In this document: positions 1 through 53,205 of the stretch, piece by piece
Layout of the letters: each line of letters opens with the position of its first letter
Numbering within the stretch: the first letter of the stretch is position 1
DNA from: a virus
Lineage: Duplodnaviria; Caudoviricetes
Length of the DNA stretch: 53,205 bases
Virus record (IMG/VR): IMGVR_UViG_3300032225_001888
Coordinates: 1 to 53,205 of that record
Direction: 5' to 3' (one strand)
Notes under the pieces: generated by a model
The model's database searches: none
What the model was told of the DNA's origin: nothing
What the model saw: only the letters and a program-made list of their open reading frames with translations
Translations under genes and position numbers: made by a program

Positions 1-123
1 AAACACCTCGCAAGCCTTTAGGCTGGAAGGACCCTAGGTTAATAATGTAGTAGCGTTGTATGCTGCCGAGCTGCCGAGCTGCCGAGCTGCCGAGCTGCCG
101 AGCTGCCGAGCTGCCGAGCTGCC
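1..123. repeat. 123-bp terminal direct repeat, left copy (probably circular assembly overlap)
   Basis: 1-123 is identical to 53083-53205. Confidence 0.95.
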
Positions 124-131
124 GAGCTGCC
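62..131 (+). repeat. Perfect octamer tandem repeat (GCTGCCGA)x8.75
   Basis: Eight full GCTGCCGA units plus GCTGCC read directly. Confidence 0.97.
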
Positions 132-144
132 AATGGCAAGCACT

Positions 145-169
145 AAAAGACCCCCTAAACTTAGGGGGC
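145..169 (-). terminator. Rho-independent terminator closing the early minus-strand unit
   Basis: CCCCCTAA/TTAGGGGG stem followed by TCTTTT on the minus strand, just after the stop at 188. Confidence 0.65.
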
Positions 170-187
170 TGTGAGTGTAGACTATGC

Positions 188-826
188 TCAGCCGCCGTAG
201 TATGGCTCAATAGGCTCGATTTTACAGAGGTAGGGTATACCCTTTATCCGGGCTAAATACCTGCCCTTGTGGTATGTGATAGGAGAGTCTATGTGATCCT
301 CAAGTTCACCGCAAGGGTACGAGGAGTAACCGCTGCTAAGTCTGTCATTCAATGAATCTAAGGCTGCCTGGCAGCCATTATCACGGACCGGACTCACCCA
401 AAATCCTACCGTAGTATCAAACAGACCCGATTCTGCTATGTTGTCGTTATCTTCCATGGCGTAGACTTTGTAGCAATCAATGACAACGAATGCCTCACTG
501 CTATAGAACGGGTCACCGGAGCGGTAGCCGTTCTCCCGGTAAAATATGTCAACTGCCATACTGAACTCCTCTAAATAGGTTGAATGTACAGCATAGTTGT
601 ACCCGCCATTGTGCACGTTGCGCGTCATAAGATTGAAGAGTGAGCACAAGTCGGCGGTCACACTGTCAATAGAGGATGCTGCCATTAGGGCATCATGTAG
701 CAACGGGGGCAAGCTGAACGGCTCACTGTTCATAGCGGCCTCAATGTGGAGTCCCGGCACGATGCGAACACAGTCAAGTGGGCCGCCGATGCCAGCAAGG
801 ACAGAACCGGGAGATGCGGTGGTCAT
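188..826 (-). CDS. Hypothetical acidic early protein (212 aa)
   Basis: ATG ORF co-oriented with neighbours, protein-like composition, terminator downstream. Confidence 0.75.
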   Translation of the reverse strand: MTTASPGSVLAGIGGPLDCVRIVPGLHIEAAMNSEPFSLPPLLHDALMAASSIDSVTADLCSLFNLMTRNVHNGGYNYAVHSTYLEEFSMAVDIFYRENGYRSGDPFYSSEAFVVIDCYKVYAMEDNDNIAESGLFDTTVGFWVSPVRDNGCQAALDSLNDRLSSGYSSYPCGELEDHIDSPITYHKGRYLARIKGIPYLCKIEPIEPYYGG

Positions 827-869
827 TAGATTAGCTACAGTGGTAAGGGGGAATTAAAGCTGAGTGCGC

Positions 870-1715
870 TCAATAGCGATAACCAATGGCAGCACACACT
901 GCCTGCCATAACTTGTGTGGCATGTTGTCGGGGCGATGTACAGACACACTGGCGCCGATTGCGCAGGGTGTGGCGGCTGCGAACCGCCATGGCGACTGCC
1001 AGCTAGGCAAACCATCATCGGAGCCGCTGCTAATGGTGAGCCAACGTGGTTCCCCAGGGTAACAGGATGGGTAGGTGTCATACCACTTGAACGCCTGTAT
1101 AAGGTCTGCGAAACTCCATAAGCATTCGGACGTTTGCTCACTCAGTAGTTTTACTCCATCCGGTTCTAGCCAGCCACACTCTGCATAATCTCCACACTCT
1201 GCGGATTCGTTCGTATGTGTTTCACCCGTAACGCTAAAAAGTGGCGCGTCGGCGAACGATTCTGCGTACAGTCCTATAGAGTCGATCGCCTGCAGGACGC
1301 CAACGATGGCAGCCGAATCATCAGGCAGGCTAAGCGTTTCGTCCAGTTCTGCTGCATCATCACTCAGCCAGAATCCGAAACACGCGCCGTCACCTTCACT
1401 GGAGCCAAAATACGTACCTAGTGGGGCGATAGTATTTAAGGCATCGCATAAAGTCTGACACAGAATCCACTGAAGCTTCTCAGCTGTAACGTTACTCATT
1501 GTCTCGCATCCGTAGCGGCTGCTAATCGCAGCGGCCACATTAAGCAACCGCTGATCTTCGATGCTTAGGTAAGTGTCTAAGGTTTCGCCTCTCATGCTGG
1601 CAATATTGGCTAAGGCATCGCTGAAGGCTACTGCGCAATCAGTAAGGCGTAGGGTCGCGGCACTGACAATCCAAGGGAAGCTAGAGAGCTGCGCCTGTGA
1701 GTAGGTAAAGGTCAT
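870..1715 (-). CDS. Hypothetical phage early protein (281 aa)
   Basis: ATG at 1715 downstream of a sigma70-type promoter; APxGxYFGxxxGDGAxFGFW motif typical of phage hypotheticals. Confidence 0.75.
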   Translation of the reverse strand: MTFTYSQAQLSSFPWIVSAATLRLTDCAVAFSDALANIASMRGETLDTYLSIEDQRLLNVAAAISSRYGCETMSNVTAEKLQWILCQTLCDALNTIAPLGTYFGSSEGDGACFGFWLSDDAAELDETLSLPDDSAAIVGVLQAIDSIGLYAESFADAPLFSVTGETHTNESAECGDYAECGWLEPDGVKLLSEQTSECLWSFADLIQAFKWYDTYPSCYPGEPRWLTISSGSDDGLPSWQSPWRFAAATPCAIGASVSVHRPDNMPHKLWQAVCAAIGYRY

Positions 1716-1757
1716 CAGGATTAATGGGTTAAGGGCGCCGGGTGATCCGGTAAGCAA

Positions 1758-1786
1758 ACAATAACGCCCTTAGGACGGGGTGTCTA
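1758..1786 (-). promoter_or_regulatory. Sigma70-type promoter (TAGACA-N17-TATTGT)
   Basis: Minus-strand -35 at 1781-1786, 17-bp spacer, -10 at 1758-1763. Confidence 0.65.
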
Positions 1787-1787
1787 G

Positions 1788-1801
1788 GGTGCAAATGTAC
1801 T
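1788..1801. promoter_or_regulatory. Cyanobacterial LexA-like box adjacent to the -35
   Basis: AGTACATTTGCACC (minus) is one mismatch from RGTACNNNDGTWCB. Confidence 0.6.
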
Positions 1802-1881
1802 ACTTTTTAGGGCCGCCACACTGCCAGGCCGGTAGCACGGCGGTGCCCCATACATCCCCACCGCTTCACACTTAGTTACCT

Positions 1882-1959
1882 AGTACGGATGCACTGGCGT
1901 ATGGTCGTACTAGAGATCGGGCGTACTACCGTACGGATATACTGGCGTATGAGCGTACT
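1882..1959. promoter_or_regulatory. Array of five 14-bp LexA-like boxes at 16-bp period
   Basis: Units at 1882, 1898, 1914, 1930 and 1946, each with a GTAC half-site and a degenerate second half. Confidence 0.6.
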
Positions 1960-2074
1960 AGCCCCTATTCCCCACTAACCCCATAGGGAATAGAGCCTAC
2001 GGGCCTACGGGCCGAGGCGCCTAGGCGGGCCAGGCGTCAGCTGCAGGGGGGTAAGTTGTGCCGCATAAGCCTTA

Positions 2075-2180
2075 GGGCGTGTAAGTAAAAAGGCTAAGAA
2101 AACCGACCCCCTGTAAGTCCTAAGTCTTTTGGGCGTGTAAGTAAAAAGGCTTAGAAAACCGGCACTCTACAAGTCCTAAG
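2075..2180. repeat. Two 50-bp direct repeats carrying AGAAAACCG-N9-AAGTCC
   Basis: 2075-2124 vs 2131-2180 share GGGCGTGTAAGTAAAAAGGCTWAGAAAACCG and AAGTCCTAAG. Confidence 0.9.
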
Positions 2181-2185
2181 CCCCC

Positions 2186-2216
2186 TTACCGCTTAGCGGG
2201 GAGAGGTAAGCGGTAA
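2186..2216. repeat. 10-bp inverted repeat, possible terminator hairpin
   Basis: TTACCGCTTA ... TAAGCGGTAA just downstream of the 2238 stop. Confidence 0.55.
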
Positions 2217-2237
2217 TCAGGAAGGGGTAGGCGGAAA

Positions 2238-2906
2238 TCAGTATGGCTTACACCGGCTAAGTATCCACCCCGTCACATGCTTAGGGAGGGGCCTAGGTGT
2301 ACCGGTTGTGCATGTTTCGCGTAGGCGTAGGTATTGCCAGCGGTTTTCCTCTGTATGCCAATAGGGGCTTAGGCGGTATTCTGTACCGCTTTTGTGGCGG
2401 GCGTAGAATACTAGGCAACCGCCATCACAACATGTAAGTTGGCGGGGGCTAAGTTGCTCGGCGGTTACGGTGTAGGGCTGCCGGGATGAATACATTACGC
2501 CCGCTTGCCATGCTCCCCTATCGTATTGCTTAGGGCGGGCGCTTAGCGACGCCGTAAGCTCCTGGCTAAGCGTGTAAAGTTGCTTAGCGATTGACTGTAG
2601 AACCTCCCCGTCACTTAGGCCCGCGCAACTTACACGCACACGGGTAAAGCGGTCGCTAATTAAGTTATCCTCCCTTACCCATTCAAAATTGGGAGCTAAC
2701 TCTGTGGGGCGTACTTCTGCGGATACCTCGCTAACTAAGGGGCGTGCCAACGTGTAGTGATTAGGATATTGTTCTGTCTGAATATAGAAGCACCCGGCAT
2801 AAGCGCTTAGGTCGCCATGCCTAGCGGTTACGTGGTAGAGGTTTCGGCAGCCTGAGGCGGTGAGGGGTGGGGCTAGGTGTAAGCGGGCGTCGGTTGGCAG
2901 GGCCAT
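2238..2906 (-). CDS. Hypothetical protein (222 aa)
   Basis: Long ATG ORF in the early operon orientation. Confidence 0.65.
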   Translation of the reverse strand: MALPTDARLHLAPPLTASGCRNLYHVTARHGDLSAYAGCFYIQTEQYPNHYTLARPLVSEVSAEVRPTELAPNFEWVREDNLISDRFTRVRVSCAGLSDGEVLQSIAKQLYTLSQELTASLSARPKQYDRGAWQAGVMYSSRQPYTVTAEQLSPRQLTCCDGGCLVFYARHKSGTEYRLSPYWHTEENRWQYLRLRETCTTGTPRPLPKHVTGWILSRCKPY

Positions 2907-2972
2907 AAGGGGGAGGGGGTAAGCGGGGAGGGGTAAGCGGGGAGGGGGACGGGCGGCGGGGGAGCTAGGGGG

Positions 2973-3713
2973 CTAAGGGGCGAGGGGGCCTAGTGGCGGC
3001 TCTAGCGGCTCCGGCTCAGCTCCGGGCCAGGGGTAGGGCTCGCGGCGCCATTCCTGATCGGGGTGCAGGAGGGGTAGGCCGGTTAGCTCGATTAGGTCAG
3101 CCATGGGAATATCCGCAGGCTTAGGCAGGCGGCAGTCAGGGAGGTAGTCGGAGTGCTCCCATTCGATCGTGCCAGCGGCGCACCAGTCCCAGAACAGGGC
3201 GCTTAGCTTGTCGTCGTGAAGCTCGGTGATTATGTCGTCGGCCCAGTACGGCGGGGCGTCGGCGGGGGCGTATGCTTCTAGGGCGTCAATAAGCAGGGCG
3301 GTAAAGTCGCTTGATACATAATAGATGTAGGCCCGTTCTTCATCTTCCCTCTCAAGATCTGACCAGTCATCTTCATCATACACGCAATAGTCGCTAAGCT
3401 TAGCGGCTATGTCGTCGGCCAGCATTAAACAGGCCTCGTCCGATCGATGGATTAAATACATTTCATACCAGCCGCAAGCCCAGTGGCCTATACGGACGAT
3501 GCCCGTATCTTCGTGCTGGCTCACTGCGTCTAAATCGGCACTAATGCGGCGCCAGTTGCTACGGCTTATGGCGTCGGCAGTGTCGCGGGTTTGATGGATC
3601 GGCGCTAGGTAGAAGGCGCTGAGGTCGGTGCCCACATAATTGGCGGCGCTATCCAAGGAAGAGGCGCCGGAGCCGGGTTGCCAGGCGTCTAAGTGAAAGG
3701 GGGTGTAAGGCAT
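2973..3713 (-). CDS. Conserved acidic phage hypothetical protein (246 aa)
   Basis: RD...SNW, HWACGWYE and DEDDWSDLE motifs typical of a recurrent phage early family. Confidence 0.8.
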   Translation of the reverse strand: MPYTPFHLDAWQPGSGASSLDSAANYVGTDLSAFYLAPIHQTRDTADAISRSNWRRISADLDAVSQHEDTGIVRIGHWACGWYEMYLIHRSDEACLMLADDIAAKLSDYCVYDEDDWSDLEREDEERAYIYYVSSDFTALLIDALEAYAPADAPPYWADDIITELHDDKLSALFWDWCAAGTIEWEHSDYLPDCRLPKPADIPMADLIELTGLPLLHPDQEWRREPYPWPGAEPEPLEPPLGPLAP

Positions 3714-3793
3714 GGCGGGGTAAGGGGCTTAGGGGGTAAGGGGGCTTAGGGGTAAGGGGGCGTAATGGTCATCGCCTCTGGTGGTGGTGGTGA

Positions 3794-4462
3794 TTAGTCG
3801 CGGACTTGCACAGGCATCAGCAGGAATTCAAGCCGGCCGGTGATGCCAGGGATTGCAGAATCGCAGGATGCGGCCACAGGATTGCGCGGGCCGTTAGTTT
3901 CAAACCTAAACACATTGTTAGGGCTGAGTGACTCGACCATCTTTAGAAAGGTGGTGAGATAGGTCGCATTCATTGAAATCGCCTCGCCGGGGGCATTCTT
4001 AAAGCTATGCGGCCACAGCCGGTCACACTCTGGGAAGTTATAGCAGTCTGCTGCATGTTTCCAGGGTTTCGCCTCAATCAGATCGGACGGGGGCAGGGCA
4101 TCGGCTGCGGCAGACTTTGCAACCTTGCCGCCGCGAATCTCAACCACACCGTCAGCACGGATAAAAGCATAGTGGGAGTAGGTAACTTTCTTCTTAAAGG
4201 CATCGGCTGACAGTAGTAGATCCTGGGATAGATAAAATCGCTCGGATTGCTCAAAGACAAACCGAAACAGCATATGACCGTTTGTAGAGTAGATGGCGAT
4301 CTTTGAGCCCTGCCGCTTGCAGGAGATCAGCTGTAATGCCTGCTTGTACTCGTCCCTAGAAACGCACTGCGCCGCGCAATGCAGGATGGCGGGGGGCAGA
4401 CAGGCCAGCAAGGTCGGGCCGTAGGCGTTGATCGTTGCGCTACTGAGTGTGGCGGGGTTCAT
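3794..4462 (-). CDS. DNA polymerase III beta-clamp-like protein, two domains only (222 aa)
   Basis: SxDExKxAL, STNGHML (cf. ATDGHRL), FPxxxRLxP, ISMNATYL and C-terminal LLMPVQVR mirror DnaN domains II-III. Confidence 0.7.
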   Translation of the reverse strand: MNPATLSSATINAYGPTLLACLPPAILHCAAQCVSRDEYKQALQLISCKRQGSKIAIYSTNGHMLFRFVFEQSERFYLSQDLLLSADAFKKKVTYSHYAFIRADGVVEIRGGKVAKSAAADALPPSDLIEAKPWKHAADCYNFPECDRLWPHSFKNAPGEAISMNATYLTTFLKMVESLSPNNVFRFETNGPRNPVAASCDSAIPGITGRLEFLLMPVQVRD

Positions 4463-4507
4463 GGACTTAGGGGGTAAGGGGGCTAAGGGGCGAGGTGGCC
4501 AAGCGGC

Positions 4508-4804
4508 CTAGCGAAACTTCAGATATAGGGCGTACCACGGCTCAAACGCTGGAGCGTTGTAGGCCAGGCAATCAAGTTTAGAGGCGACTATAGCGCGGGT
4601 TAGCTCTAGAAAATCCGCATTAGGCCCGCGCAAGATTAGGCGGCGGTTGCTGTAGTTCGCGCCGATTTTGTACGTTGTGCGTTTGTTTAGGTAACGGAGA
4701 AGGGGCGCATAGGCTAGGGGGTCGGATATAGCCGCCGCTTCAACACCGCCCAACAGAGTAGAGAATTGTTTTGAGTTTAGGTTGTAGTAGTTGGCGGGGA
4801 GCAT
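4508..4804 (-). CDS. Hypothetical protein (98 aa)
   Basis: ATG ORF filling an operon gap. Confidence 0.6.
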   Translation of the reverse strand: MLPANYYNLNSKQFSTLLGGVEAAAISDPLAYAPLLRYLNKRTTYKIGANYSNRRLILRGPNADFLELTRAIVASKLDCLAYNAPAFEPWYALYLKFR

Positions 4805-4878
4805 TGGCGGTTTAGGGATAGTGTAGCTTAGGCCGCTTAGGTGGGGCGGCCTAAGTTTGAAGCGGTAGGGCTTAGGGC

Positions 4879-5340
4879 TTAGGCGTGGGCGGTGCTGTCT
4901 GGTTGGCCGGATGCCTTAGCGATTGCGGCCCGCCTAATGGTAGGGCTATTCAGGGCTTCGATCCAAGAATCCCAAAGTTGCTCCCCGTCGCTGTCGTACC
5001 ATTCGCTTACACCCTGCTCGATAAGAACATATAGGCCAGCGGCGAATGGTCCGCGTGGCCAGTCACCGCTAAGGGACTCAGCGCCAAAATGATCTGTAAG
5101 GGCGGCCAGTGCGGCTTCATGGTGGAAGTAGGCCAGCTCATTAAGTACGGATGTCCAGATTGGCACAGTTATATCAATTAACTGATGGACGGAGCCGGAG
5201 TAGTCCAGATCATTACTAAGGCAGGGGAAATCCGTATCTTCGTTCTCAATAAACCAAACTTCAAGCAGGTCACGCACACCGTCGCAGGCACTTTCGATAA
5301 GTGCGGGGAGGGTGTCGGTAAGGGTTGTAGTGCGGGTCAT
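4879..5340 (-). CDS. Ocr (T7 gp0.3)-like acidic DNA-mimic protein
   Basis: Acidic and helical; VHQLIDITVPIW resembles Ocr IHMAADNAVPHY; ATG at 5340. Confidence 0.5.
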   Translation of the reverse strand: MTRTTTLTDTLPALIESACDGVRDLLEVWFIENEDTDFPCLSNDLDYSGSVHQLIDITVPIWTSVLNELAYFHHEAALAALTDHFGAESLSGDWPRGPFAAGLYVLIEQGVSEWYDSDGEQLWDSWIEALNSPTIRRAAIAKASGQPDSTAHA

Positions 5341-5431
5341 AAGTGATAGGCGGTAAAGGGGCCGGGGGCCTAGCGGACGGAGCGCCGCTTGATTGGAAGC
5401 ATACACGGGTCAGGCAGGCGGGGGCGTGGGC

Positions 5432-5525
5432 GCTTAGCACTTTGTAACACAAGGGCTAAGCGGCCACGCGACCTAGCACGCCCAGCCCCCTAAAGCGTGG
5501 GGGCTTAGCACTTTGTAACACAAGG
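5432..5525. repeat. Two perfect 23-bp direct repeats GCTTAGCACTTTGTAACACAAGG
   Basis: Copies at 5432-5454 and 5503-5525. Confidence 0.9.
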
Positions 5526-5821
5526 CCATGTGGCCAGGCGGCAGGGGCTGAGCGGTCGATTCTCAATAGCGCGGGCTTATTGAGATACGCTGGCGTTGTT
5601 GCTGCTGATTCTCATTAGCGCCTAGGCCCCGGCGGCGTACCACGGCAGGCCGATCGGCTTAGCGACTTATGGGCCAGGGGGCCTGGCCGGCTTAGCCCAC
5701 TTACCCCATCGACTTAGGGGGGTATGTGCTTGGGGGCGGGGCTTAGGGGTGTGGCGGCTACGTGGGGGCGTGCCAGCCCTAAGAGGGGAAGGGGTGTGTA
5801 TTTGGGGGTGTGAAAATGCTA

Positions 5822-5920
5822 AGAAAACCGGACCCTTGCAAGTCCCCAACCAATGTGGCGGCTAGGCGGGCAAGGGGCCAGGCGGCGTGATTGCCTAGAA
5901 AACCGAGTGTGTGCAAGTCC
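5822..5920. repeat. Second pair of AGAAAACCG-N9-AAGTCC motifs
   Basis: Copies at 5822-5845 and 5897-5920. Confidence 0.85.
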
Positions 5921-5969
5921 TAAGTGAGCGTGGCGCCTAGGCGGCTAGGCGGTGAGGTCGCCACGCTGC

Positions 5970-6299
5970 TTAGCTGCCCCACTGCTTAGCCATGGCGGCG
6001 GCGATGCGGTGAATTGGCGCATCTAGGCAGTGCTGCACAAAGGCCAGGGCATCCTCGGTGAGGGCAGGATCACGCTTACCGCGTGTCGTCCAGTGCATCC
6101 CGCTGCTGCTTAGGTAGGTACATGGTGGGTGGGCGATCAGCAAGTCCCAGCCTCCAGCTAGGTGGGGAATTAGGTCGCCTTGGATGTGCGGACCATGGGC
6201 AGAGGTAGGCAGGAGGTCACAGGAAACGGCATCGTGGCCTGCGGCGATGAACGCATCACGTACCACGCCGGAACTCTCGCAAGCAACAAGTACGCGCAT
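5970..6299 (-). pseudogene. Phage C5-cytosine DNA methyltransferase with in-frame internal deletion
   Basis: VLVACExSG, SCDLLP and catalytic HPPC are present; the sequence jumps from RIA to the terminal AMAxQWG and lacks the ENP motif and TRD. Confidence 0.75.
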
Positions 6300-6338
6300 A
6301 AGTTGGAAGGTGTAAGGGGAGGGAGGTGGCGTGGCAGT

Positions 6339-6657: not shown

Positions 6658-6984
6658 TCAGCCATCGCTGGCCTCCGGCTTAGCGGGGAGGGGGAGGGCC
6701 CAGTGGGGGAGCCAGTGGGTATCCCCTTCCAATGTTTCCAAATCAAAGGTCCAGCACGGGCGGATCTCGTGAGGCCCACAGGCTGGCGGCGAAAACCACC
6801 AACACTTCCCCTCCCCATTGCAATCCTCCGGCTGAGGCAGCCGCTCGCTCACTGGCACCGGCACCAGTGCTGGGGCAGGCACCGGCTGGGTGGCTGGTGC
6901 GCCTTCCTCGGCCAGGACCAAAGCCAGTTCAGTGCATAGGGCGCGGTAAATAGTCATACCCATTCCGGTGGTGAGGTTAATCAT
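6658..6984 (-). CDS. DUF551-like cyanophage small protein
   Basis: PVSERLP..EDC..EGKCWW...THWLPHWALP motif; ATGA-coupled to the upstream gene. Confidence 0.75.
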   Translation of the reverse strand: MINLTTGMGMTIYRALCTELALVLAEEGAPATQPVPAPALVPVPVSERLPQPEDCNGEGKCWWFSPPACGPHEIRPCWTFDLETLEGDTHWLPHWALPLPAKPEASDG

Positions 6985-7403
6985 TGGTCGCCCTCAAGCT
7001 CGGCGGCGAGTTCGTGCAAGAACTGACATCCAAAAGCAATTCCATCACGAAATCCAGTGGCGTAATTTTCACCACCCCAATTTTCCTTAGGTACGCAACC
7101 AGCAGCAGACCGCAGGGCGGCAACAAGCGGAGCATTTGTAAACCCAAGTTCCTTGGCAAGGGCAGAAGGCATCCCCACGTTTTTCCAGTAAACATCCAGC
7201 ACCGCCTGCGCGCAGGCGTAAGTCAACGTCAGCTTCTCATCCGTTGGCCCCTTCGGCTCCGGCTGGGCCAGTTCGGCATCAGCCTCGGCCAACAGATCGG
7301 CGCAGACGCCGTAGCGGCCGTACTGCGCACTCAGCGCGGTGGCGAGGCGACGGATCAGGTCGTGGTGCTCTTTATACGGATTGGCGCTGTCGCATTCAGC
7401 CAT
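6981..7403 (-). CDS. Modular cyanophage hypothetical protein
   Basis: LAQPEPKGPTDE, AQAVLD and LAAELEG modules; overlaps both neighbours. Confidence 0.75.
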   Translation of the reverse strand: MAECDSANPYKEHHDLIRRLATALSAQYGRYGVCADLLAEADAELAQPEPKGPTDEKLTLTYACAQAVLDVYWKNVGMPSALAKELGFTNAPLVAALRSAAGCVPKENWGGENYATGFRDGIAFGCQFLHELAAELEGDQ

Positions 7404-7842
7404 CAAACTCCCCCCCCAACTTGTTGATTACTTGCTGTAGCTTCGTGCTCAGATCGAACATAGGTTGTTGCGTTTCTTGTTTAAATACCTTGATAACTGT
7501 TGCAGTGATACCCTGCTCTACAACCCCTTGAATAGAGGCCCTTACTTCCTCTTGGTGCTCAGAAAGCCACTCCGTAATTGTAGTTCTAACCATAGGCTCA
7601 ATACACTCCTTGACAAGTTCTTCAAATCGTGATGGCAGCACTTTGTCGTATCCACTGAATCCACCAACGCGCACTGTTTGTTTCTGAAACAGGCTTTGCT
7701 CAATAGCTTTATCGACCAATGCTTTGGCTTCTTCCGGTGTTAGCAATTCCGATAGGGATTCGCGCACACGTTCAAACATGCGATCTTGAAATGTTGCTGT
7801 TGTAGTCAGGTCGGCCATGGTTGCAGAGTGGTAGGTGTTCAT
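7396..7842 (-). CDS. Hypothetical helical protein (148 aa)
   Basis: Probable start ATG at 7842 (MNTYHSAT), overlapping the stop of the upstream mini-ORF. Confidence 0.7.
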   Translation of the reverse strand: MNTYHSATMADLTTTATFQDRMFERVRESLSELLTPEEAKALVDKAIEQSLFQKQTVRVGGFSGYDKVLPSRFEELVKECIEPMVRTTITEWLSEHQEEVRASIQGVVEQGITATVIKVFKQETQQPMFDLSTKLQQVINKLGGEFDG

Positions 7843-7928
7843 TTTGTTATTCTCCAGATATACAAACAAGCAGGCAAAAGCCAGATCAACTGCATCGCAA
7901 CATCTGCCCATGTGGTGTGGTTGATCAT
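7839..7928 (-). CDS. 29-aa hydrophobic peptide
   Basis: MINHTTWADVAMQLIWLLPACLYIWRITK; ATGA overlaps at both ends. Confidence 0.5.
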   Translation of the reverse strand: MINHTTWADVAMQLIWLLPACLYIWRITK

Positions 7929-8125
7929 GTGGCCTCCAGCTCAGCAGCCAGGCGCTCCAGCTGCTCAGGCCGCACCGCGCTCCACCCGTGGACTGCTGCC
8001 AGGTGACGCAGGAGAGCGGCGATGCACAGCTCCTGCCAGTTGTCGTCAAAGGAACCGCAGTTCTCGTATCGATCATCAAATGCCGCGACCAGCGCCTGCG
8101 CGGCGGGGGAGAGTGACTGGCTCAC
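7925..8125 (-). CDS. Modular hypothetical protein (66 aa)
   Basis: GTG start; LSPAAQAL...LRHLAAVH...LERLAAELE. Confidence 0.65.
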   Translation of the reverse strand: MSQSLSPAAQALVAAFDDRYENCGSFDDNWQELCIAALLRHLAAVHGWSAVRPEQLERLAAELEAT

Positions 8126-8211
8126 TGCTCCACCTCCCGGCCCTCCAGCTCGGCGGCGGCTTCGACTGTGAAGGCGATCTGGCTGAACCGGCGCCAGTTG
8201 GGTTGGTTCAC
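8122..8211 (-). CDS. 29-aa peptide ending in the AAELEG module
   Basis: MNQPNWRRFSQIAFTVEAAAELEGREVEQ; GTGA overlaps at both ends. Confidence 0.5.
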   Translation of the reverse strand: MNQPNWRRFSQIAFTVEAAAELEGREVEQ

Positions 8212-8630
8212 GAGTGTTGGCCCGTGGCTTGACCATCGGCTCGTCCATGTAGAGCCGGATACCGTCCCTCAAGCTCGGCGGCCAGGCGCTCCAGCAGCAA
8301 GCAACTGTCAACTTTCCACACCGCCGCCAGATGCACCGCCGCCAGATGGCGCAGCACGGCGGGCAGTCCGCCCTCCTCCAGTTCGTCCAGCAGGCGCTGG
8401 GCCCGCTGGGTTGCCGGGGCAGGCTGGGCGGGTGGGGTGGGCTGCTCCATCGGCTCCCGGATCGCCCGGCGCAGGGTGTCCATCTCGGGCACCACCTGGA
8501 GCCGCTCCAGGGCTTCAACCCGGTAGTGCAGCTCCAGGATGCACGAGTCCCGGTGACAGTAGGCGTTGGGATCGGCGTGTAACTGAACGGCTTCCCACTC
8601 GTCCGGTGTGGCGCGGTGATTGGTGCTCAT
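8208..8630 (-). CDS. Modular hypothetical protein (140 aa)
   Basis: HRATPDEW...CILELxxRVEALE and LRHLAAVH...LERLAAELEG modules. Confidence 0.7.
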   Translation of the reverse strand: MSTNHRATPDEWEAVQLHADPNAYCHRDSCILELHYRVEALERLQVVPEMDTLRRAIREPMEQPTPPAQPAPATQRAQRLLDELEEGGLPAVLRHLAAVHLAAVWKVDSCLLLERLAAELEGRYPALHGRADGQATGQHS

Positions 8631-8716
8631 GGCGTTTCCATGGTGGTGGAGGTGGTATTGGGGGCGTGGTGTGGTGGTGTGGTGTGCCGGGATGGGCTCC
8701 CGGCGGGCCGTGAGGG

Positions 8717-8983
8717 TCAGGCGGGGTGCCGCATCGTGATGTCAGGGCCAGGGCCGCCGGGACGCTCCTGGACGGTCACACCTTCGATGCGGGTGACATC
8801 GAACCACTGGCTGTAGGGCATCCCGTTGGCGTCCCGTGCCGCCAACTGGAGTTGATCGCAGCCTGTCAGATAAGTAGCGCTGGCAACGGCCACGCCTTCG
8901 ATGCCGAGAACGGTATCGCGGTACTTCTGCCCCAAGGTGAACTGGGTGCCGTTAAGGAGGACAGTGCGGTGTTCAAGTGCCAT
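8717..8983 (-). CDS. Conserved small phage protein (88 aa)
   Basis: LGxxxxD...G..G...YLTGC...WFDxxR...GGP pattern. Confidence 0.75.
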   Translation of the reverse strand: MALEHRTVLLNGTQFTLGQKYRDTVLGIEGVAVASATYLTGCDQLQLAARDANGMPYSQWFDVTRIEGVTVQERPGGPGPDITMRHPA

Positions 8984-9016
8984 GAGAGGATTTAATTGCG
9001 TTGGAGCGTGTCCAGC

Positions 9017-9681: not shown

Positions 9682-9875
9682 GGTTTGGAGTGTGCGTAGG
9701 TCGGTGTGGCTGTGTGGCTGCCTAGGTGCGCAGCGGCCTAGGGGGCAATGAGGCTTAGGAGGAGGTCGCGCAGGCGGCGAATGCTGACAGCATGGGGTGT
9801 GGATGAGCTACAGACGTTGGCGGCGGCGTAGGCGGGAGCACGCTTGAGTGCTTAGGGGCCTAGTTGCGTTGCTGC

Positions 9876-16107: not shown

Positions 16108-17949
16108 ATGTTGCGTACTGTTGCCGACTTAGCTGTTTTTGATGATTCCCCGTGGTTGACCTTCGATACGGAAACCACCGGCCTTACCCCCGAGTTGGGC
16201 GGCCTGAGGCTTGTGCAGATCGGCGCACCAGGCTGCCCGGTCGTTGTTCTGGATTACTGGGAACTCGACGGTGCCGGTGTTGAGGTGCTTAGGGAGTTCT
16301 TCCGCAAGCCGGGGCGCACGTGGTATGCGCACAACGCCACGTTCGATCTGGGGTGGCTGCAGGAACACGCGATCTACCCCGAGGGCGACGTCTATTGCAC
16401 GATGCTCGCCTCGCGGTTGCTGGAAAACGGGATCCCCAACATGCGCAACGGCCTAGCTGTTGTGGTCGAGCGCTACCTAAATCGGAAGCTCGATAAGGAG
16501 GAACAACGCTCCGACTGGAGCCTACCGGCGCTCAGCGAGTCCCAGCTGGTCTATGCGGCTGAGGATGTACGAACGCTTGTTGATCTGGTTTCCGTGGTAC
16601 GCGAGCGCATTAGGCGTGCCCGACTGGACGCAGCCTGGGCATTGGAGTGTAAAGCCTTAGCTGGAATTGCCCACATGCAACGTATGGGTATGCCATTCAA
16701 CCGCACTAAGTTGCAGGAACTGGAGGCGTATTATATCGAGCAGATTGACACCTTAGGGGCTGCGTTTGTGGAGGGCTTAGATGCGGCGCTGCCACAAGAA
16801 CACAAGCTGCCTAGGGATGAAGATGGCAGCATTAACTTGCGTGCCAAGTCTGAGGGCAGTGTCCGCGCTGGCACTAAGCGTGCAGCGGGATTCAACCTTA
16901 ATTCGCCTAAGCAGATGGTGGACAAAATGACTGCGCTGCTTGGGGTTGTACCTGTTGGAGCTAATGGGAAGCCAAGTGCTGCTAAGGATGCGCTGCGGGC
17001 GTATGCAGCCGATAGTGCGGTTGTGCAGACCTACCTCAAGTGGAAGCAGGCTGAAAAGCGTAGGCAGATGGTCGTCGCGCTGCTTACGCACCAGGCAGAG
17101 GATGGGCGCATCAGGGCAAACTACATGCAACTTGGCGCCGATACCGGAAGAATGAGTTGCCGAGAGCCCAACCTGCAGCAAGTACCTAGGGATTCGGCAT
17201 TTCGTAAGGCGGCTGAGGCACCGGAGGGGTGGGTATTTGTATGCGCGGACTTTGCGCAGATGGAGTTGCGCCTAGCTGCCGCTGTAAGCGGGGATGCCCG
17301 CATGATCAAGGCGTTCAAGGACGACGACGATCTTCACACAATTACTGCTTCGGCCATCTACCCCGAACCAACAGAAGACGCTGCTGAGTTGAAGCGCAGG
17401 AGGCAAGTCGCTAAGTCGGCAAACTTCGGTCTGCTCTACGGCAGTGGTGCCAACGGCCTTCGCAATTATGCGGGTGCCTCCGGCATCCTAATGTCAGTCG
17501 AAGAGGCCGAAGAAATTAGGGCTACGTTCCACGGCACTTACTCTGGTGTAAGTATGTGGCAGCGAGAGGCTGCGATCACTTCAGATAGAACGTCACACGA
17601 TAAGTGGGCAGAGATTCGCATACCTGTAAGCGACATGCGTAGGTACTTGATTGGTGACAACAACCGGCTTACGGTGCGGTGCAATACACCTATTCAGGGG
17701 GCTGGTGCGGCCATCCTGAAGCTGGCGATCGGTAGGCTGTGGCCGCTGGTACGTGCCGCTGGCGAGGATGCCGTGCAGCTCGTCGCCGTCGTACATGACG
17801 AAGTGTTGCTACTCGTCCGTGAGGGCCTAGAGGCCGATTGGGCTAGACAGCTTAGTGAGGCGATGGAGAAGGCCGAGGCGCTGTGGCTTGGGGACGTACC
17901 AGCCAAGGCAGACGCAGCATGGGGGACTACGTGGCAGGATGCCAAGTAA
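16108..17949 (+). CDS. polA: Family A DNA polymerase with 3'-5' exonuclease
   Basis: DTETT, HNATFD and YAAED exonuclease motifs; DFAQMELR, KSANFGLLYG and VHDE polymerase motifs. Confidence 0.97.
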   Translation: MLRTVADLAVFDDSPWLTFDTETTGLTPELGGLRLVQIGAPGCPVVVLDYWELDGAGVEVLREFFRKPGRTWYAHNATFDLGWLQEHAIYPEGDVYCTMLASRLLENGIPNMRNGLAVVVERYLNRKLDKEEQRSDWSLPALSESQLVYAAEDVRTLVDLVSVVRERIRRARLDAAWALECKALAGIAHMQRMGMPFNRTKLQELEAYYIEQIDTLGAAFVEGLDAALPQEHKLPRDEDGSINLRAKSEGSVRAGTKRAAGFNLNSPKQMVDKMTALLGVVPVGANGKPSAAKDALRAYAADSAVVQTYLKWKQAEKRRQMVVALLTHQAEDGRIRANYMQLGADTGRMSCREPNLQQVPRDSAFRKAAEAPEGWVFVCADFAQMELRLAAAVSGDARMIKAFKDDDDLHTITASAIYPEPTEDAAELKRRRQVAKSANFGLLYGSGANGLRNYAGASGILMSVEEAEEIRATFHGTYSGVSMWQREAAITSDRTSHDKWAEIRIPVSDMRRYLIGDNNRLTVRCNTPIQGAGAAILKLAIGRLWPLVRAAGEDAVQLVAVVHDEVLLLVREGLEADWARQLSEAMEKAEALWLGDVPAKADAAWGTTWQDAK

Positions 17950-26957: not shown

Positions 26958-27401
26958 TCAGGCTGTAGGTTGCAGCGCTGCGACAAACGGCGCCGGCAGA
27001 TTGCAGACCGTGGCCCTGCCAACGATCTCCGCCAGGTCGGCCTGGGGCAGGCCGGAGGCGGCGAGGAACAGGGCCCACGACAGCGCGAACGGTTGATAGT
27101 GCTGGCGCAGCCGGGCCTCGTCCATTGCCGCCGGCAGGCCGGTCGTGGCGGGCTCGCCCTGGGGGTCGGCGCTGGCGCGGGCTGAGGTCATGGCGGCTGC
27201 CATCGGGGCGAACTGATAAAGCCACCCGGCAAAGCCAAGCCAGTCGGGGGAGGGCTCCGGCGGGGCGGGGGGCTCCGGCGGGGCGGGGGTGTATGGCGTC
27301 CACTGATCGGCCTTGGGGTTGCCAGCTGCAATCCAGGCGGCCATCAGGCCATCATCAATGTCGCGCACCTCGCCGGTGGCGATGTTCTGAAAGAGGCTCA
27401 T
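26958..27401 (-). CDS. Tail-fibre-associated hypothetical protein
   Basis: ATGA-coupled to the LamG gene; PAPPEP repeat linker. Confidence 0.7.
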   Translation of the reverse strand: MSLFQNIATGEVRDIDDGLMAAWIAAGNPKADQWTPYTPAPPEPPAPPEPSPDWLGFAGWLYQFAPMAAAMTSARASADPQGEPATTGLPAAMDEARLRQHYQPFALSWALFLAASGLPQADLAEIVGRATVCNLPAPFVAALQPTA

Positions 27402-28048
27402 TGGATGATACGCGGATGGGTAGACACGCCAGCGCCGCCGACGTTGGTGATCGTGCGACCTAGCCGCAGATCGGCCAGGTTGCGGATCAGCGGGGCGTAG
27501 AACTGGAGCGATTGCGGGCGGATCTGATCCGGAGTGAAGCCAGCGGCGAGGGAGGCAATTTCGGCTGCGGTCAGCTCTACGTTCCAGATGGCAGTTTCTG
27601 CTATTGATCCAGCAACGTATGCGGTCGGCAATTGCCGATCAAGAGAAGCGATAGAAGTTCTTGCAAAGCCTGACGGGAAGCTGGTAACTAAATTGGAAGA
27701 GCTACCAACATTAGAGCCATTGAAAAATACATCTACTTTTGAAGATGTAAAAGTCGCAGCAATCCAGAACTGTGTGCCGATCGCAAAGGTGTTTGAGGGC
27801 GAGTTTACGGCGGTAAAAACAGTTCCAGAAGCATCAATAAGGCCTGCCGCTACTATGCCATTGTTTCTATGGCCCATGTGGATGTAAGGCTCGTTTGCGC
27901 TTGCTCCTGGGTTGATTGCAACAATCGCTTGAAACGTAGACGCTACAGACGAGACATTGCAGGTCGCCGCAATTGTGAACGGATACGCCGAAACGATGCC
28001 TGATTCGACCCTTAGCGTTTGATTTGTGCCGTTGAACGTATAGGCCAT
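27398..28048 (-). CDS. LamG/concanavalin A-like lectin domain protein
   Basis: FNGTNQ, PFTI, VFFNG and GSIAETAIWNVELTAAEI. Confidence 0.8.
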   Translation of the reverse strand: MAYTFNGTNQTLRVESGIVSAYPFTIAATCNVSSVASTFQAIVAINPGASANEPYIHMGHRNNGIVAAGLIDASGTVFTAVNSPSNTFAIGTQFWIAATFTSSKVDVFFNGSNVGSSSNLVTSFPSGFARTSIASLDRQLPTAYVAGSIAETAIWNVELTAAEIASLAAGFTPDQIRPQSLQFYAPLIRNLADLRLGRTITNVGGAGVSTHPRIIQ

Positions 28049-42475: not shown

Positions 42476-42547
42476 GCATGGCGGCTAAGTGGCGGGGCAG
42501 TTAGGGGGCTAGGCAGCTAAGCGGCGAGGGGGCTTAGCTGCCACGCC
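42476..42547. repeat. Degenerate octamer array (9 units) overlapping a hairpin at 42456-42486
   Basis: gcatggcg gctaagtg gcggggca gttagggg gctaggca gctaagcg gcgagggg gcttagct gccacgcc. Confidence 0.8.
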
Positions 42548-44567: not shown

Positions 44568-44586
44568 GGCGGTGTCCAGCTATAGG

Positions 44587-45049: not shown

Positions 45050-45105
45050 GGCTTAGCTCACAGGGTTTGCGTGGTACGAGGCTAGGCAGCGAGGGGGCTT
45101 AGCCC

Positions 45106-45339: not shown

Positions 45340-45367
45340 GAGTCAGGGGCGATGGGACTGCTCAGGC

Positions 45368-49734: not shown

Positions 49735-49737
49735 GGC

Positions 49738-50316: not shown

Positions 50317-50357
50317 CGTCGTTGTAAGTGCTTTGGGCGTGTAGTAAGAGCCTAGCC

Positions 50358-50425
50358 GCTAGGCGGTAGGACGCTAAGCGGCTAGGCAGCTAGGCAGCGA
50401 GGGGGCGGGGGTGCGTAGGGGCTTA
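50358..50425. repeat. Degenerate octamer array
   Basis: gctaagcg gctaggca gctaggca gcgagggg gcgggggt gcgtaggg gctta, ending on the terL stop. Confidence 0.8.
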
Positions 50426-52297
50426 CCAGCGGTTGACGAAGTTGCGGCGGGCGGGGGTGGTGGGGGTAGGGGGTGTGGGTGCGACGGGGCTTAGGGGCGT
50501 GCCAGGGGTGGAGTGGGCGGCGCGTTCTAGTTGGTCCCAGATGGTGCGGCGGTCGTAGCGCTGATAGAGGCGGTGGAGGGCGGCGTAGGCGTAGTTGAGT
50601 TCGTCCAGGGCTTCGTTGCGGGATTGGCTTTTCTTTACCCAGATGCGTTCGGGGAAGCCGTTGCGGAAGCGAAGGATTTGTTTCTCGGCGGTCAGTTCTT
50701 CAAAGTATTCGGGGGTGACTGTGGGATAGAAGTGGAGGTAGCCGGGGCCGGGGTCGCTGTGCTTTAGGCGGCCGAAAAGGAGGGATTTTATGCCGTCTAC
50801 GCCTACGGGGAATAAGGAGGCGCCGCGTTTGAGGGCTTTGCCTTTGAAGTTGATGTCTACTTTGGTTGCTTTGCCTAAGGGGGGTTTGCCTTTTGTGTTG
50901 GCGCCTTTGATGGCGATTACGCCTAGGTGGGCGCGTTCGCGGGCGTATTGGTAGACCTCTTGGGTGTGGTGGCCGCCGGAGTCAATGGCGCAGCACAGCA
51001 CCTTGAGGGGCTCGTCGGCTTCGTTGGTGTAGGGCGTGGCCAGGATTTCGTCAAGTTGGGTCCAGACCTCAGAGCGACTGGGGCTGCCGTACAGCTTTAC
51101 GCGATCAATTAGCCAGCCTTCCTCGTCGCGGCCCCAGGCCCACACAGAGAGGCTTAGGTGGTCGTCCTGGGTGTCGCAGCCGATGGTTAGGGCTAGGGCG
51201 TCAGCTGGGGGCTTGTGCTGGGCGTAAGTCTCCTTACTGGCGCGTTCCAGCAGGAAGTCCGCACCAACCTTGGAGGCGTATTCGTCTTCCCATGTTTCGC
51301 CTAGGACGGTGTTGACGAATGTTTTTAGGGCTTCGGGGTTGGAGCGGGAGGCTAGGAATTCTTCGACGAGTTGGGGCCAGGAGGCGTTGGGGGAGTAGGA
51401 GTAGGCGGCCCAGATGTGGAAGCCGATGTGCTTGCCGTTGCCGGGGGCGGTGGCACGCCATTCGCCACGTTCCACCATCCATCGCTTTTTGGAGTGGGGG
51501 ACGAGGGTGGAGCAGCTTTCGCACTTGTAGGTGGCGGTGGCAGGATCGTTGTCGTGCCAGGTGATGTTTGGCCACCGTAGGTATTGGTAGTGGTTGCACT
51601 CGGGGCATGGCACGAAGTAGCGGCGTTGATCTGTCTCTAGGTAGAGGCGTTCTACGCGGCTGAAGTCCTTGACGGTGGGGGTGGAGCCGCTAACGATTTT
51701 GCGGTTCCAGTAGTATTCGGTTCGTCGGATACCGAGTTTGATTTGGTCGCCTTCCGGGCCAGCGGAGGTGGGGTAGCCGTCGATTTCGTCAAAGAGGACG
51801 ACACGGCGGCTTACGCGGCGGAAGCCTCGGGGTGAGTTGGCGCCGACCAGGCTGAGCGTGCCACCCGGAAACTGCTTTTGAAGGATGGTGTTGGCGCCGT
51901 CCTTGGCTTTGGCTTCGCTGACTAGGCCGCGCAGGCAGGGGGTGTCGCGCAGCATTGGCGCGATCTCCTCCTTGGAATGGCCCTGCGCGTCTTCAATGGT
52001 CGGCAGCACCACCATGATGGGTGCCGGATCTTGGTGGATATGGTACGCAACGCAATGGTTCAAGCATTTAGTGTAGCCAACACGCGCCGATTTCATTACG
52101 GTTACGTGTTCGATTTTGGGGTCGGTTAGGGCGTCGAGGATGCCCTTTTGGTAGGGGAGTGTTTTCCACGGACCAGCCTCGGCGCTGGATTCGGCACTAA
52201 GGAAGGCGTTTTCGTCGGCCCACTCGCTAAGGGTGATGTTGCGGAGGGGTTTGAACGCTAGGTAGGCGCTGGTTTTTAGGTCTAGGAGGGTGGGCAT
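50423..52297 (-). CDS. terL: Terminase large subunit, lambda GpA family
   Basis: KSARVGYT Walker A, FDEID, STPT, CPEC/CESC, DSGG and RNEALD. Confidence 0.96.
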   Translation of the reverse strand: MPTLLDLKTSAYLAFKPLRNITLSEWADENAFLSAESSAEAGPWKTLPYQKGILDALTDPKIEHVTVMKSARVGYTKCLNHCVAYHIHQDPAPIMVVLPTIEDAQGHSKEEIAPMLRDTPCLRGLVSEAKAKDGANTILQKQFPGGTLSLVGANSPRGFRRVSRRVVLFDEIDGYPTSAGPEGDQIKLGIRRTEYYWNRKIVSGSTPTVKDFSRVERLYLETDQRRYFVPCPECNHYQYLRWPNITWHDNDPATATYKCESCSTLVPHSKKRWMVERGEWRATAPGNGKHIGFHIWAAYSYSPNASWPQLVEEFLASRSNPEALKTFVNTVLGETWEDEYASKVGADFLLERASKETYAQHKPPADALALTIGCDTQDDHLSLSVWAWGRDEEGWLIDRVKLYGSPSRSEVWTQLDEILATPYTNEADEPLKVLCCAIDSGGHHTQEVYQYARERAHLGVIAIKGANTKGKPPLGKATKVDINFKGKALKRGASLFPVGVDGIKSLLFGRLKHSDPGPGYLHFYPTVTPEYFEELTAEKQILRFRNGFPERIWVKKSQSRNEALDELNYAYAALHRLYQRYDRRTIWDQLERAAHSTPGTPLSPVAPTPPTPTTPARRNFVNRW

Positions 52298-52337
52298 AAG
52301 TTTGCGTGGCAGCGTAGGAATGAGGTTGTTGGGGAGC

Positions 52338-52922
52338 TTAGCTTTCGTCGGGTGTGGGGGCCTCGCCACTTAGTTCTTCTAGGCACTCGCGCACGATGGA
52401 ATCAAGGATGCTTATGGCGTCTACGTCTAGGTCGGGGATTCGTTGCTTAGCTTTGGTGGGTATTCCCATGATTCGGGTACGGGCGCGTGTGATTATTTCG
52501 GTCCAGGTGGCTTCGACTTCGGCTGCGGATACGAGAGTTCCTTCTTTTTGGCGACGGTCTAGTTCAAGTAGCTCTGCTTTTAGGTATTCGGTGCGGGCGC
52601 GGCTTTCGTCGTAGTCGGGGATGCTTTCGGTGGTACGGCTAAGGCGCTCGGATCTGGCGGGTTGGGGGGCCATGCGTTCGGCAGCGGGGCGAAGGGGCGT
52701 ACCAGCGCTGCGGTTTTGTGGTGGCGGGTCAAGGCGCGGACCAACGCCGATGCGCCTTTGTGTGTTGCGGGACCACTCCTCACGCATTGTCGTGCTGTCT
52801 ACGCATACATCACCAACCGTATTGAGGACTGTGCCGAGGCGCCCTGCCTTGACCGCTGCGTAGACCGCTGCGCCCGTAACGCCTAAACAGCGTGCTGCTT
52901 CAGCTCGGGAAATAAGTGCCAT
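52338..52922 (-). CDS. terS: Terminase small subunit (Nu1-like)
   Basis: N-terminal HTH, ESRARxExLKAEL.EL..EGTLV; upstream of terL. Confidence 0.85.
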   Translation of the reverse strand: MALISRAEAARCLGVTGAAVYAAVKAGRLGTVLNTVGDVCVDSTTMREEWSRNTQRRIGVGPRLDPPPQNRSAGTPLRPAAERMAPQPARSERLSRTTESIPDYDESRARTEYLKAELLELDRRQKEGTLVSAAEVEATWTEIITRARTRIMGIPTKAKQRIPDLDVDAISILDSIVRECLEELSGEAPTPDES

Positions 52923-53082
52923 GTAGCGAGGTTAGCGCAATAAAACGATACTGTTTAGCCTAAGGCTTGACAATTTGTGGTATTATGTCCCGTTTTTGCC
53001 ATTTTCGGGGCTTAAGAGGCCGTATTGCTTTCTGTACTCAAAGTACTTTTTTTGGCTGTGCCTGGCCGAACGCTGCGATCTG

Positions 53083-53205
53083 AAACACCTCGCAAGCCTT
53101 TAGGCTGGAAGGACCCTAGGTTAATAATGTAGTAGCGTTGTATGCTGCCGAGCTGCCGAGCTGCCGAGCTGCCGAGCTGCCGAGCTGCCGAGCTGCCGAG
53201 CTGCC
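53083..53205. repeat. 123-bp terminal direct repeat, right copy
   Basis: Identical to 1-123. Confidence 0.95.

Follow-up and report, generated by a model that had tools for sequence, protein, structure and literature searches.

The virus genome IMGVR_UViG_3300032225_001888 (Caudoviricetes; IMG/VR), analysed here over its whole stretch of 53,205 bp (hereafter the window), contains the pentamer CTWAG (CTAAG or CTTAG) at 2-3 times the expected density. On the best reading of the results, this phage lineage has an iterated palindrome of its own, CTWAG (most favoured form G-CTWAG-S), similar to the highly iterated palindromes (HIPs) of cyanobacteria. The pressure towards the word acts on double-stranded DNA, on the word as a whole and in every gene and spacer; it is clade-specific and still acting. 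As a record the window is complete, with direct repeats at its termini, and it represents a lambda-like siphovirus with a GC content of 58%. An earlier note on this DNA had described an excess of TpA, CTWAG, CTAG and GTAC and had put it down either to methylation and deamination of the kind known as repeat-induced point mutation (RIP) or to selection for a binding or anti-restriction word; the CTWAG excess and the lack of TpA avoidance were borne out, the CTAG and GTAC excess and the RIP-like reading were not.

Expected numbers were taken from base composition (order 0), from Markov models of order 1, 2 and 3 (order 3 being the maximal order for a pentamer) and from a synonymous-codon shuffle performed per gene on 49 open reading frames (ORFs; 44.9 kb), which preserved the protein and each gene's codon usage. 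CTWAG occurred 249 times in the window, whereas 82.3 occurrences were expected from composition (3.0x). The Markov models of order 1, 2 and 3 predicted 100.0, 109.7 and 201.2, thus the excess builds up at the tetramer and pentamer level. Over the maximal-order model CTWAG was still at 1.24x (z 6), and in the corresponding ranking CTTA/TAAG was the top over-represented tetramer and CTAAG/CTTAG the top pentamer. In the codon shuffle CTWAG was the strongest pentamer, with 177 occurrences against 62 ± 7 (2.8x, z 16), and it was raised in each stop-free frame (CTA-AG 2.5x, CT-AAG 2.9x, CTT-AG 2.4x and C-TTA-G 3.9x, hyphens marking codon boundaries). On the coding strand CTAAG (2.74x) and CTTAG (2.92x) were alike, and 42 of the 49 ORFs, including genes of both strands, exceeded their shuffle expectation. 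The genome-wide signal and the gene bearing on its orientation are:

1-53205, no strand: genome-wide CTWAG over-representation, favoured form with G at -1 and G or C at +1
16108-17949, plus strand: family A DNA polymerase gene (Pfam), 11 CTWAG against 3.1 in the codon shuffle

Since the polymerase gene is fully enriched, the excess is independent of gene orientation. Relative to composition, CTWAG was found 197 times within ORFs (75.7 expected) and 26 times in spacers outside arrays (5.7 expected, 4.5x). Outside all tandem and dispersed arrays there were 226 sites against 81.2, hence the excess is not confined to the octamer arrays; such confinement would have spoken against the earlier note. 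A palindrome in excess over both Markov and codon-based expectations, in all frames and in spacers, is HIP-like. The base at -1 was G in 61% of the sites and T in 7%, and T at -1 and A at +1 were avoided. The longer motif GCTTAGG occurred 44 times, with no conservation in its flanks. Regular spacing was rejected, as the coefficient of variation of inter-site distances was 1.26 and only array-derived distances of 15-17 bp and 23-24 bp were prominent.

The pressure concerns the word as a whole. Among its one-letter variants the shuffle gave 1.02-1.04x for CTSAG, 1.18x for CCWAG/CTWGG, 0.86x for TTWAG/CTWAA, 1.17x for GTWAG/CTWAC, 1.31x for ATWAG/CTWAT, 0.98x for CAWAG and 1.01x for CGWAG, and CCWGG was barely depleted (0.81x; 126 against 155). 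When CTWAG was removed, by arithmetic on the shuffle counts, CTAA/TTAG stood at 138 against 134; therefore the tetramer excess follows from that of the pentamer rather than giving rise to it. The same figures led us to reject selection for off-frame stop codons ('ambush' selection), for which CTGA/TCAG was at 0.88 and TGA-containing words were not enriched. Synonymous choices depend on word-completing letters up to 3 nt away. For NCN codons before lysine, the third base was T in 59 of 112 cases with AAG but in 6 of 50 with AAA (odds ratio (OR) 8.2, p 6.5e-7). The third base of CTN-A was W in 79 of 114 cases (69%) before AG and in 113 of 226 (50%) before AA, AC or AT (OR 2.3), and TTA was used for leucine after ..C in 36 of 209 cases (17%) before G and 13 of 356 (4%) otherwise (OR 5.5). 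The NCN-before-lysine and CTN-A dependencies recur, with OR 2.25 and 2.8, in G002, a complete genome of the same clade; none of the three is present in G008 and G009, complete genomes of the sister clade.

The other words named by the earlier note gave a different picture. The TpA odds ratio was 1.07 over the window, so that the customary avoidance is missing. CTAG occurred 161 times against 196.8 (0.82x by composition, 1.01x in the shuffle) and GTAC 227 times against 196.8 (1.15x and 1.04x). GCTAG had been called common, yet it and CTAGC were found 51 and 37 times against 57.3 each by composition. CCTAGG, also called common, did exceed composition (26 against 16.7) but fell short of the 38.8 predicted from its sub-words. 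CTAG and GTAC are frequent only relative to the sister phages, which avoid them (in G008, CTAG 77 against 223.8).

Among the relatives compared, the enrichment follows one clade. Relatives were collected from IMG/VR by TerL, and 80 loci were kept. Fifteen TerL loci (L002-L012, L049, L050, L055 and L060) showed CTWAG at 1.5-3.6x composition with a C-rich coding strand; a large sister group showed 0.0-0.7x, TpA odds of about 0.57 and a G-rich coding strand, and a small group was intermediate. The TerL tree was calculated from 40 of 78 alignable rows, 38 near-duplicate sister rows being dropped; the alignment did not include L010, L060 and L061, which are truncated at the 5' end. A branch supported at 99/96 separated the 14 CTWAG-rich, C-skewed rows from the rest of the tree. 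The longest terminal branch was that of the window (TerL, 50423-52369, 0.43 against a median of 0.018; PolA, 16108-17949, 0.49), whose proteins have changed faster than those of its relatives. In the shuffle the complete genomes gave 2.12x (z 10.5) for G002, with TpA at 0.95x, and 0.60x and 0.80x for G008 and G009, which share the structural module and lack the polymerase. The 15 loci nearest by PolA had CTWAG at only 0.16-0.96x. Four of these share the exonuclease (68-69%), the primase-helicase (59%) and PolA (66-68%) with the window, and stood at 0.58-0.96x. Since structural-only and replication-only relatives are unenriched, the enrichment follows the clade and not either module, and an error signature of the polymerase was rejected on the same PolA loci. 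In the PolA tree the window and G002 paired weakly (83/88) on long branches.

Phage contigs that share a tail-fibre domain with the window (L107-L110, L112 and L113) had 7 CTWAG against about 72, i.e. about 0.1x. A scan of IMG/VR for three GCTTAG within about 70 bp returned at least 119 loci with a median CTWAG ratio of 0.97, and no second lineage at similar GC was seen among the matches listed. A scan of genome contigs returned 13 loci, and the single close one (82%) was a 1-kb contig of sister-type composition. Cultured phages gave no close relative, the megablast search being empty and the top TerL match having 46% identity; a literature search under the string 'CTWAG' gave nothing relevant among the matches listed.

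That the pressure is still acting can be seen in DNA acquired by the lineage:

28540-29571, minus strand: horizontally acquired middle section, residues 161-504, of ORF 28048-30051 (tail-fibre-like), 77-84% amino acid and 76-79% nucleotide identity to L107/L108

The contigs L107/L108 have a GC content of 65%, TpA odds of about 0.4 and CTWAG at about 0.1x. With L109 as the outgroup, 101 derived changes were assigned to the window branch and 24 to the L107/L108 ancestor. On the window branch the coding strand had, on balance, 32 fewer G (18 G>C, 17 G>A and 12 G>T changes), TpA rose from 8-10 to 19 and CTWAG from 0 to 2, each CTWAG gain having taken two changes. The segment is drifting to the signature, thus the signature is imposed on DNA after its entry into the lineage. 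The gene itself is a mosaic, as the C-terminal part matches other contigs (73-76% amino acid identity).

Locally, the density of the word varies, and the following features were recorded:

2041-3000, no strand: densest CTWAG stretch, 18 sites (8 CTAAG and 10 CTTAG) against 1.6 from local composition, TpA odds 1.78
2906-2998, minus strand: octamer-type array, carrying CTWAG/TAAG words, directly upstream of the start codon at 2906, mRNA strand G-poor, plus strand with G-runs
3717-3761, minus strand: array of GGGGTAAG / GGGGCTTAG units (plus-strand reading) directly upstream of the start codon at 3713
4455-4515, minus strand: similar array upstream of the start codon at 4462 (RusA-like gene)
42484-42545, minus strand: similar array between the tail-tube gene and the next downstream gene
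50357-50419, minus strand: array of GCTAGGCA / GCTAAGCG units between the terminase large-subunit and head-tail joining genes
6690-9010, no strand: island without the signature, composition like the sister clade, 1 CTWAG against 3.4 (composition), TpA odds 0.58
21944-22699, plus strand: intein (HNH and NUMOD4) in the ThyX gene, without the signature (Pfam Intein_splicing, residues 146-397 of ORF 21509-23149)

The count of 18 sites in 2041-3000 agrees with that of the earlier note; the stretch takes in the unannotated ORF 2238-2906 (minus strand; 11 CTWAG against 4.0 in the shuffle) and the array upstream of it. The repeats quoted in that note are also in place (TGCAAGTCC at 5837 and 5912, TGTAAGTCC at 2112, TACAAGTCC at 2168, GGATGCACT at 1887 and GGATATACT at 1935), and their differences sit in copies of an element of about 53-56 bp (…AAGAAAACCG…CAAGTCCTAAG) found in left-arm spacers at 2072-2180, 5797-5849 and 5890-5920, which are possibly early promoters or operators.

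The motif had further been described as nearly absent from 6690-9010, the intein, 26960-29200 and the capsid domain. The counts are indeed low by composition (1 against 1.6 in the intein, where the TpA odds are 0.53; 1 against 2.8 in 26960-29200; 0 against 1.0 in the capsid domain), but the capsid and portal genes, poor in CTWAG in absolute terms, are still enriched under their own codon usage, with 4 against 1.1 and 4 against 0.9. The intein and the 6690-9010 block have probably also entered the genome recently. The block gave no Pfam or PHROG family above the curated cut-off, and G002 gave no ThyX match.

Weak positive selection for a high density of CTWAG sites is the explanation that we put first, tentatively and with rather less than even confidence. 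It is put first because the neighbours of the word are all equally disfavoured, because word-level selection is effective in this genome (CCGCGG 1 against 25, GCGCGC 2 against 21), and because CTWAG is rare in host-like DNA, as represented by the phage contigs sharing the tail-fibre domain. A dimeric protein of the phage or the host, binding or modifying DNA, would then recognise CTWAG, and the word may mark or coat the phage's own DNA, being rare in DNA like that of the host. The effect of each site is small (odds of about 2-8 at synonymous positions), which would explain why sites are not individually conserved. The suggestion of a binding or anti-restriction word in the earlier note is compatible with all findings but is unproven against site-directed biased repair.

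Several points weigh against selection for density. Over 18 orthologue pairs of the window and G002, whose third positions are 43% identical, 9 of 62 CTWAG sites (15%) were shared, compared with 12-35% for seven control words. Recent changes were polarised in a quartet of closely related loci (L002, L005, L004 and L010; 93-97% identical; 13,010 columns, 790 substitutions private to one genome). Here substitutions had hit 9 of 46 CTWAG sites (19.6%) compared with 25.0% for all pentamers (p 0.5), and gains and losses were in balance, the 8 gains (6.6 expected without context) and 11 losses (14.9 expected) not differing significantly from expectation; a second count gave 9 gains and 7 losses. By the logic applied to HIP1 in the part of PMC5861425 drawn on here, such low site conservation would favour neutral replenishment over per-site selection. 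No protein reading CTWAG was identified in the analysis, neither PF00145, PF01555 nor PF02086 methyltransferases were present in the window and G002, and Vsr (PF03852) had no match in the window. The word bias may also be imposed by the host. In addition, the ORFs follow a simple longest-ORF rule and a few may be spurious. Because sites turn over and density is kept in both the window and G002, the excess is not the relic of a past burst; turnover with kept density fits weak selection for density or continual biased replenishment.

Neutral replenishment of this kind comes close behind, being possible, if on the unlikely side. It would proceed by site-directed biased mismatch correction or context-specific mutation, as proposed for the HIPs of cyanobacteria, with a biased, recognition-site-directed repair model as precedent in the part of PMC4390886 drawn on here. 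An enzyme recognising CTWAG-like DNA would resolve near-cognate mismatches to the cognate word during replication or phage recombination, and the word itself would be functionless. Unconserved positions and a weak per-site effect agree with this, as do the acquired DNA, where both new CTWAG were made by two changes each, the phage's own PD-(D/E)XK exonuclease, RusA-like resolvase and ligase, and the long TerL and PolA branches of the window, which fit strong directional pressure. However, no near-cognate class was clearly depleted, the lowest being TTWAG/CTWAA at 0.86x with z -1.4, which together with the missing PF03852 match leaves no sign in the window of a bias of the Vsr type. No Vsr was found in the window and no intact methyltransferase in the clade genomes. 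Phages with the same replication and recombination module have CTWAG at 0.58-0.96x, therefore the module is insufficient, and gains in the quartet did not significantly exceed expectation.

We consider it improbable that CTWAG is a viral 'self' word, about 30-fold denser in the clade than in host-like DNA and read by a phage protein that tells phage from host DNA. Such a protein would coat or modify DNA or take part in replication or packaging, and candidates would be the family-less small ORFs beside the polymerase gene, although homologues also occur in CTWAG-poor polymerase relatives. The G-run/CTWAG arrays before genes might then be high-affinity loading sites, and the word would play in a phage the part of Chi, uptake sequences or HIP1.

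A second layer of bias is present in the window. The plus strand is G/T-rich nearly throughout, whatever the gene orientation, and the cumulative GC skew climbs almost monotonically. At third positions the GC skew of minus-strand genes is -0.38 and that of plus-strand genes +0.11, thus the asymmetry is a property of the DNA strand rather than of the mRNA. The skew has the opposite sign relative to TerL in the sister clade, and it suggests one-directional replication or one-sided exposure of single strands. Together with the relaxed avoidance of TpA and CTAG and the long protein branches, it looks like the outcome of a shift in mutation, which cannot account for the strand-symmetric CTWAG excess.

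It is doubtful that the excess is a passive by-product of several lower-order pressures (strand skew, C-ending codons, removal of many GC-rich restriction palindromes, and avoidance of GA/TC and AGA/TCT) that jointly steer synonymous codons towards CTWAG. No dinucleotide is more under-represented than GA/TC (0.85; shuffle z -10.5 and -8.4), both CTSAG variants include TC or GA, and tetramer frequencies by themselves already predict 201 sites, out of 249 observed. Where TerL has conserved Leu-Ser pairs, the sister group uses TTG/CTG AGC and the clade switches between CTC AGC and CTW AGC. On the other hand, dinucleotide and trinucleotide models give only 100 and 110 sites, CTSAG is not depleted, CTAA/TTAG is near expectation once CTWAG is removed, and the dependence on AAG rather than AAA lies 3 nt off and is no nearest-neighbour effect.

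The RIP-like explanation, i.e. deamination driven by 5-methylcytosine (CpA/TpG to TpA, or CCWGG to CTWAG) and caused by a truncated phage methyltransferase or a host enzyme, is hardly credible. The gene in question is:

5970-6299, minus strand: truncated small DNA methyltransferase gene, 109 aa, first ~100 residues matching a family of 181-192 aa

The earlier note had supposed a broken phage C5 methyltransferase, and a truncated ORF is indeed present. It matches phrog_757 (E 2e-25, profile positions 15-124 of 247) and has 61% identity to gp12 of Burkholderia phage Bcep1 (546 nt; the cyanophage homologue is 579 nt). It is the only methyltransferase-like ORF of the window, and PF00145 had no match in the window, this ORF included, or in five relatives. 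In G002 the CTWAG excess persists with TpA at 0.95x, and the ORF has a single weak match there, over 36 residues (E 3.5e-4).

Some local observations point towards deamination. RIP-like indices occur in 2001-3000 (TpA/ApT 2.44, (CpA+TpG)/(ApC+GpT) 0.79), and a slight gradient runs from CCWGG through CTWGG/CCWAG to CTWAG (0.81x, 1.18x and 2.8x). In the acquired segment 7 of 13 new TpA came from TG or CA, and 6 of the 9 CTWAG gains of the quartet were C>T or G>A. In sliding windows, however, the indices are RIP-like in that interval alone, the whole-window values being 1.14 and 1.09. CpA/TpG is not depleted (symmetrised odds 1.04; shuffle CA 1.01, TG 1.05, TA 1.06), nor is it at synonymous junctions, the very outcome that the earlier note had named as speaking against RIP. 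In the quartet, C>T affected 58 of 1573 CpA (3.69%), 73 of 2000 CpC (3.65%), 5.00% of CpG and 5.89% of CpT, so that CpA was no higher than CpC and lower than CpG and CpT. TpA was gained 79 times and lost 38 times; a context-free model predicts 92 and 42, thus the change reflects a general GC-to-AT excess on the tip branches. Variants of the word that contain TpA are not enriched, and the G loss of the acquired segment is not by transitions alone. No CpA/TpG depletion, no CpA-dominated C>T and no active C5 methyltransferase was therefore found in the phage genomes. Double deamination of Dcm sites (CCWGG to CTWAG) was rejected as well, because CCWGG is still abundant and the sister state at the TerL sites is Leu-Ser, not the Pro-Gly of CCWGG. 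Among quartet substitutions, C>G was highest at TCA (12/330) and TCC (8/351) against 0.5-2.2% in the other 14 contexts, in a small sample.

HIP1 (GCGATCGC) and alternate HIPs are iterated palindromes of cyanobacteria, and in the parts of PMC4390886 and PMC5861425 drawn on here HIP1 is reported as 15-300x over-represented with conserved sites. Compared with the description given in those parts, CTWAG is alike as a short palindrome enriched in and between genes, in all frames and as a property of a lineage, with the same debate between selection and repair. It differs as a 5-mer with an A/T core from the GC-rich 8-mer HIP1, in being enriched only 2-3x and in a virus rather than a cell, and in its unconserved sites. 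A HIP1-rich cyanobacterial host was rejected, as GCGATCGC occurs 0 times in the window. HIP is said, by Elhai, to be associated with a cognate methyltransferase in the genome; for CTWAG none was found in the window and G002, both being phage genomes.

In Escherichia coli, very-short-patch repair by Dcm/Vsr raises CCWGG and lowers CTWGG and CTAG. It resembles the present case in that a five-letter N-N-W-N-N palindrome is shifted by a strand-symmetric process at the DNA level, but here the favoured word is T/A-rich, the window has no Vsr and no single near-cognate class is depleted. RIP of fungi is recognised by TpA-type indices with their usual thresholds; TpA/ApT is locally high in the window as well, whereas a single word is affected, with no tie to duplicated DNA, no CpA/TpG depletion and no CpA hotspot. 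Chi, DNA uptake sequences and KOPS are over-represented words that are asymmetric and strand-polar and have known readers. As with CTWAG, density counts rather than position, and turnover is allowed; CTWAG is palindromic and no reader of it was identified. Restriction-site avoidance also shapes short palindromes through synonymous choices, and the window avoids many 6-bp palindromes, but the sign is opposite for CTWAG, which is enriched. Phage genomes are known to remove short palindromes, and to our knowledge their accumulation in phage genomes is rare; this clade does both in one genome.

The relatives that share the structural or the replication module without the enrichment make the comparison unusually clean. 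If CTWAG has a reader, the phage would offer a compact system in which to study the marking or organisation of viral DNA by the virus itself; without a reader, the window would be a clear case of biased repair writing a word into a genome, as debated for HIP1. Word biases of lineages also distort host prediction from k-mers and the detection of horizontal transfer, and here the bias exposes recently acquired segments such as the intein and the tail-fibre domain.

As for other palindromes, many GC-rich 6-bp words are almost eliminated in the shuffle comparison, CCGCGG and GCGCGC among them, together with CGCGCG (0 against 16) and also TTCGAA (0 against 9). In the Markov model GTCGAC, GAGCTC and ACGCGT are each at 0 against 23-24. 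This is restriction avoidance of the classic type, and it speaks against a general protective modification of the bases. PurZ/Z-genome and deazaguanine families had no match among the 40 ORFs scanned against Pfam, no search having been aimed at them. TGGTACG, TGGCACG and TGGTGCG (TGGYRCG) and their complements are at about 3x over the codon shuffle; a Chi-like polarity of TGGYRCG was rejected, as 62 copies lie on the plus and 75 on the minus strand, hence it is non-polar.

The structural genes of the window comprise a gpA-type large terminase, a lambda-type portal, a protease-capsid fusion, a tail tube, a tape-measure protein and gpL/gpJ-like tail proteins. Replication genes are those for the family A DNA polymerase and a PriCT-2/AAA_25 primase-helicase, and recombination genes encode a PD-(D/E)XK exonuclease, a RusA-like resolvase and a ligase-like protein. 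The window carries no tRNA genes. The genes of nucleotide metabolism are a dNMP kinase, a dCTP-deaminase-like protein and a ThyX gene split by the HNH intein; the first two lie near ThyX (21509-23149) and are common to the sister clade. The left arm (188-5406) encodes a series of 175-295-aa proteins, among which the RusA-like resolvase is the sole Pfam/PHROG family; the left-arm proteins are without a homologue in G002, G008 or G009. The leaders in front of most start codons are poor in G and rich in C/A/T (CCCCTTACCCCTAAG... arrays or ...CCTAC...ACTT ATG) and have no Shine-Dalgarno purine run, and a further G-poor leader array lies at 9726-9770. On the opposite strand the arrays show GGGG runs 3-4 letters apart, from which G-quadruplexes could form. 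A perfect tandem octamer, GCTGCCGA, is found at 62-131 and 53144-53205 (8.8 and 7.8 copies), within the direct terminal repeat at both ends.

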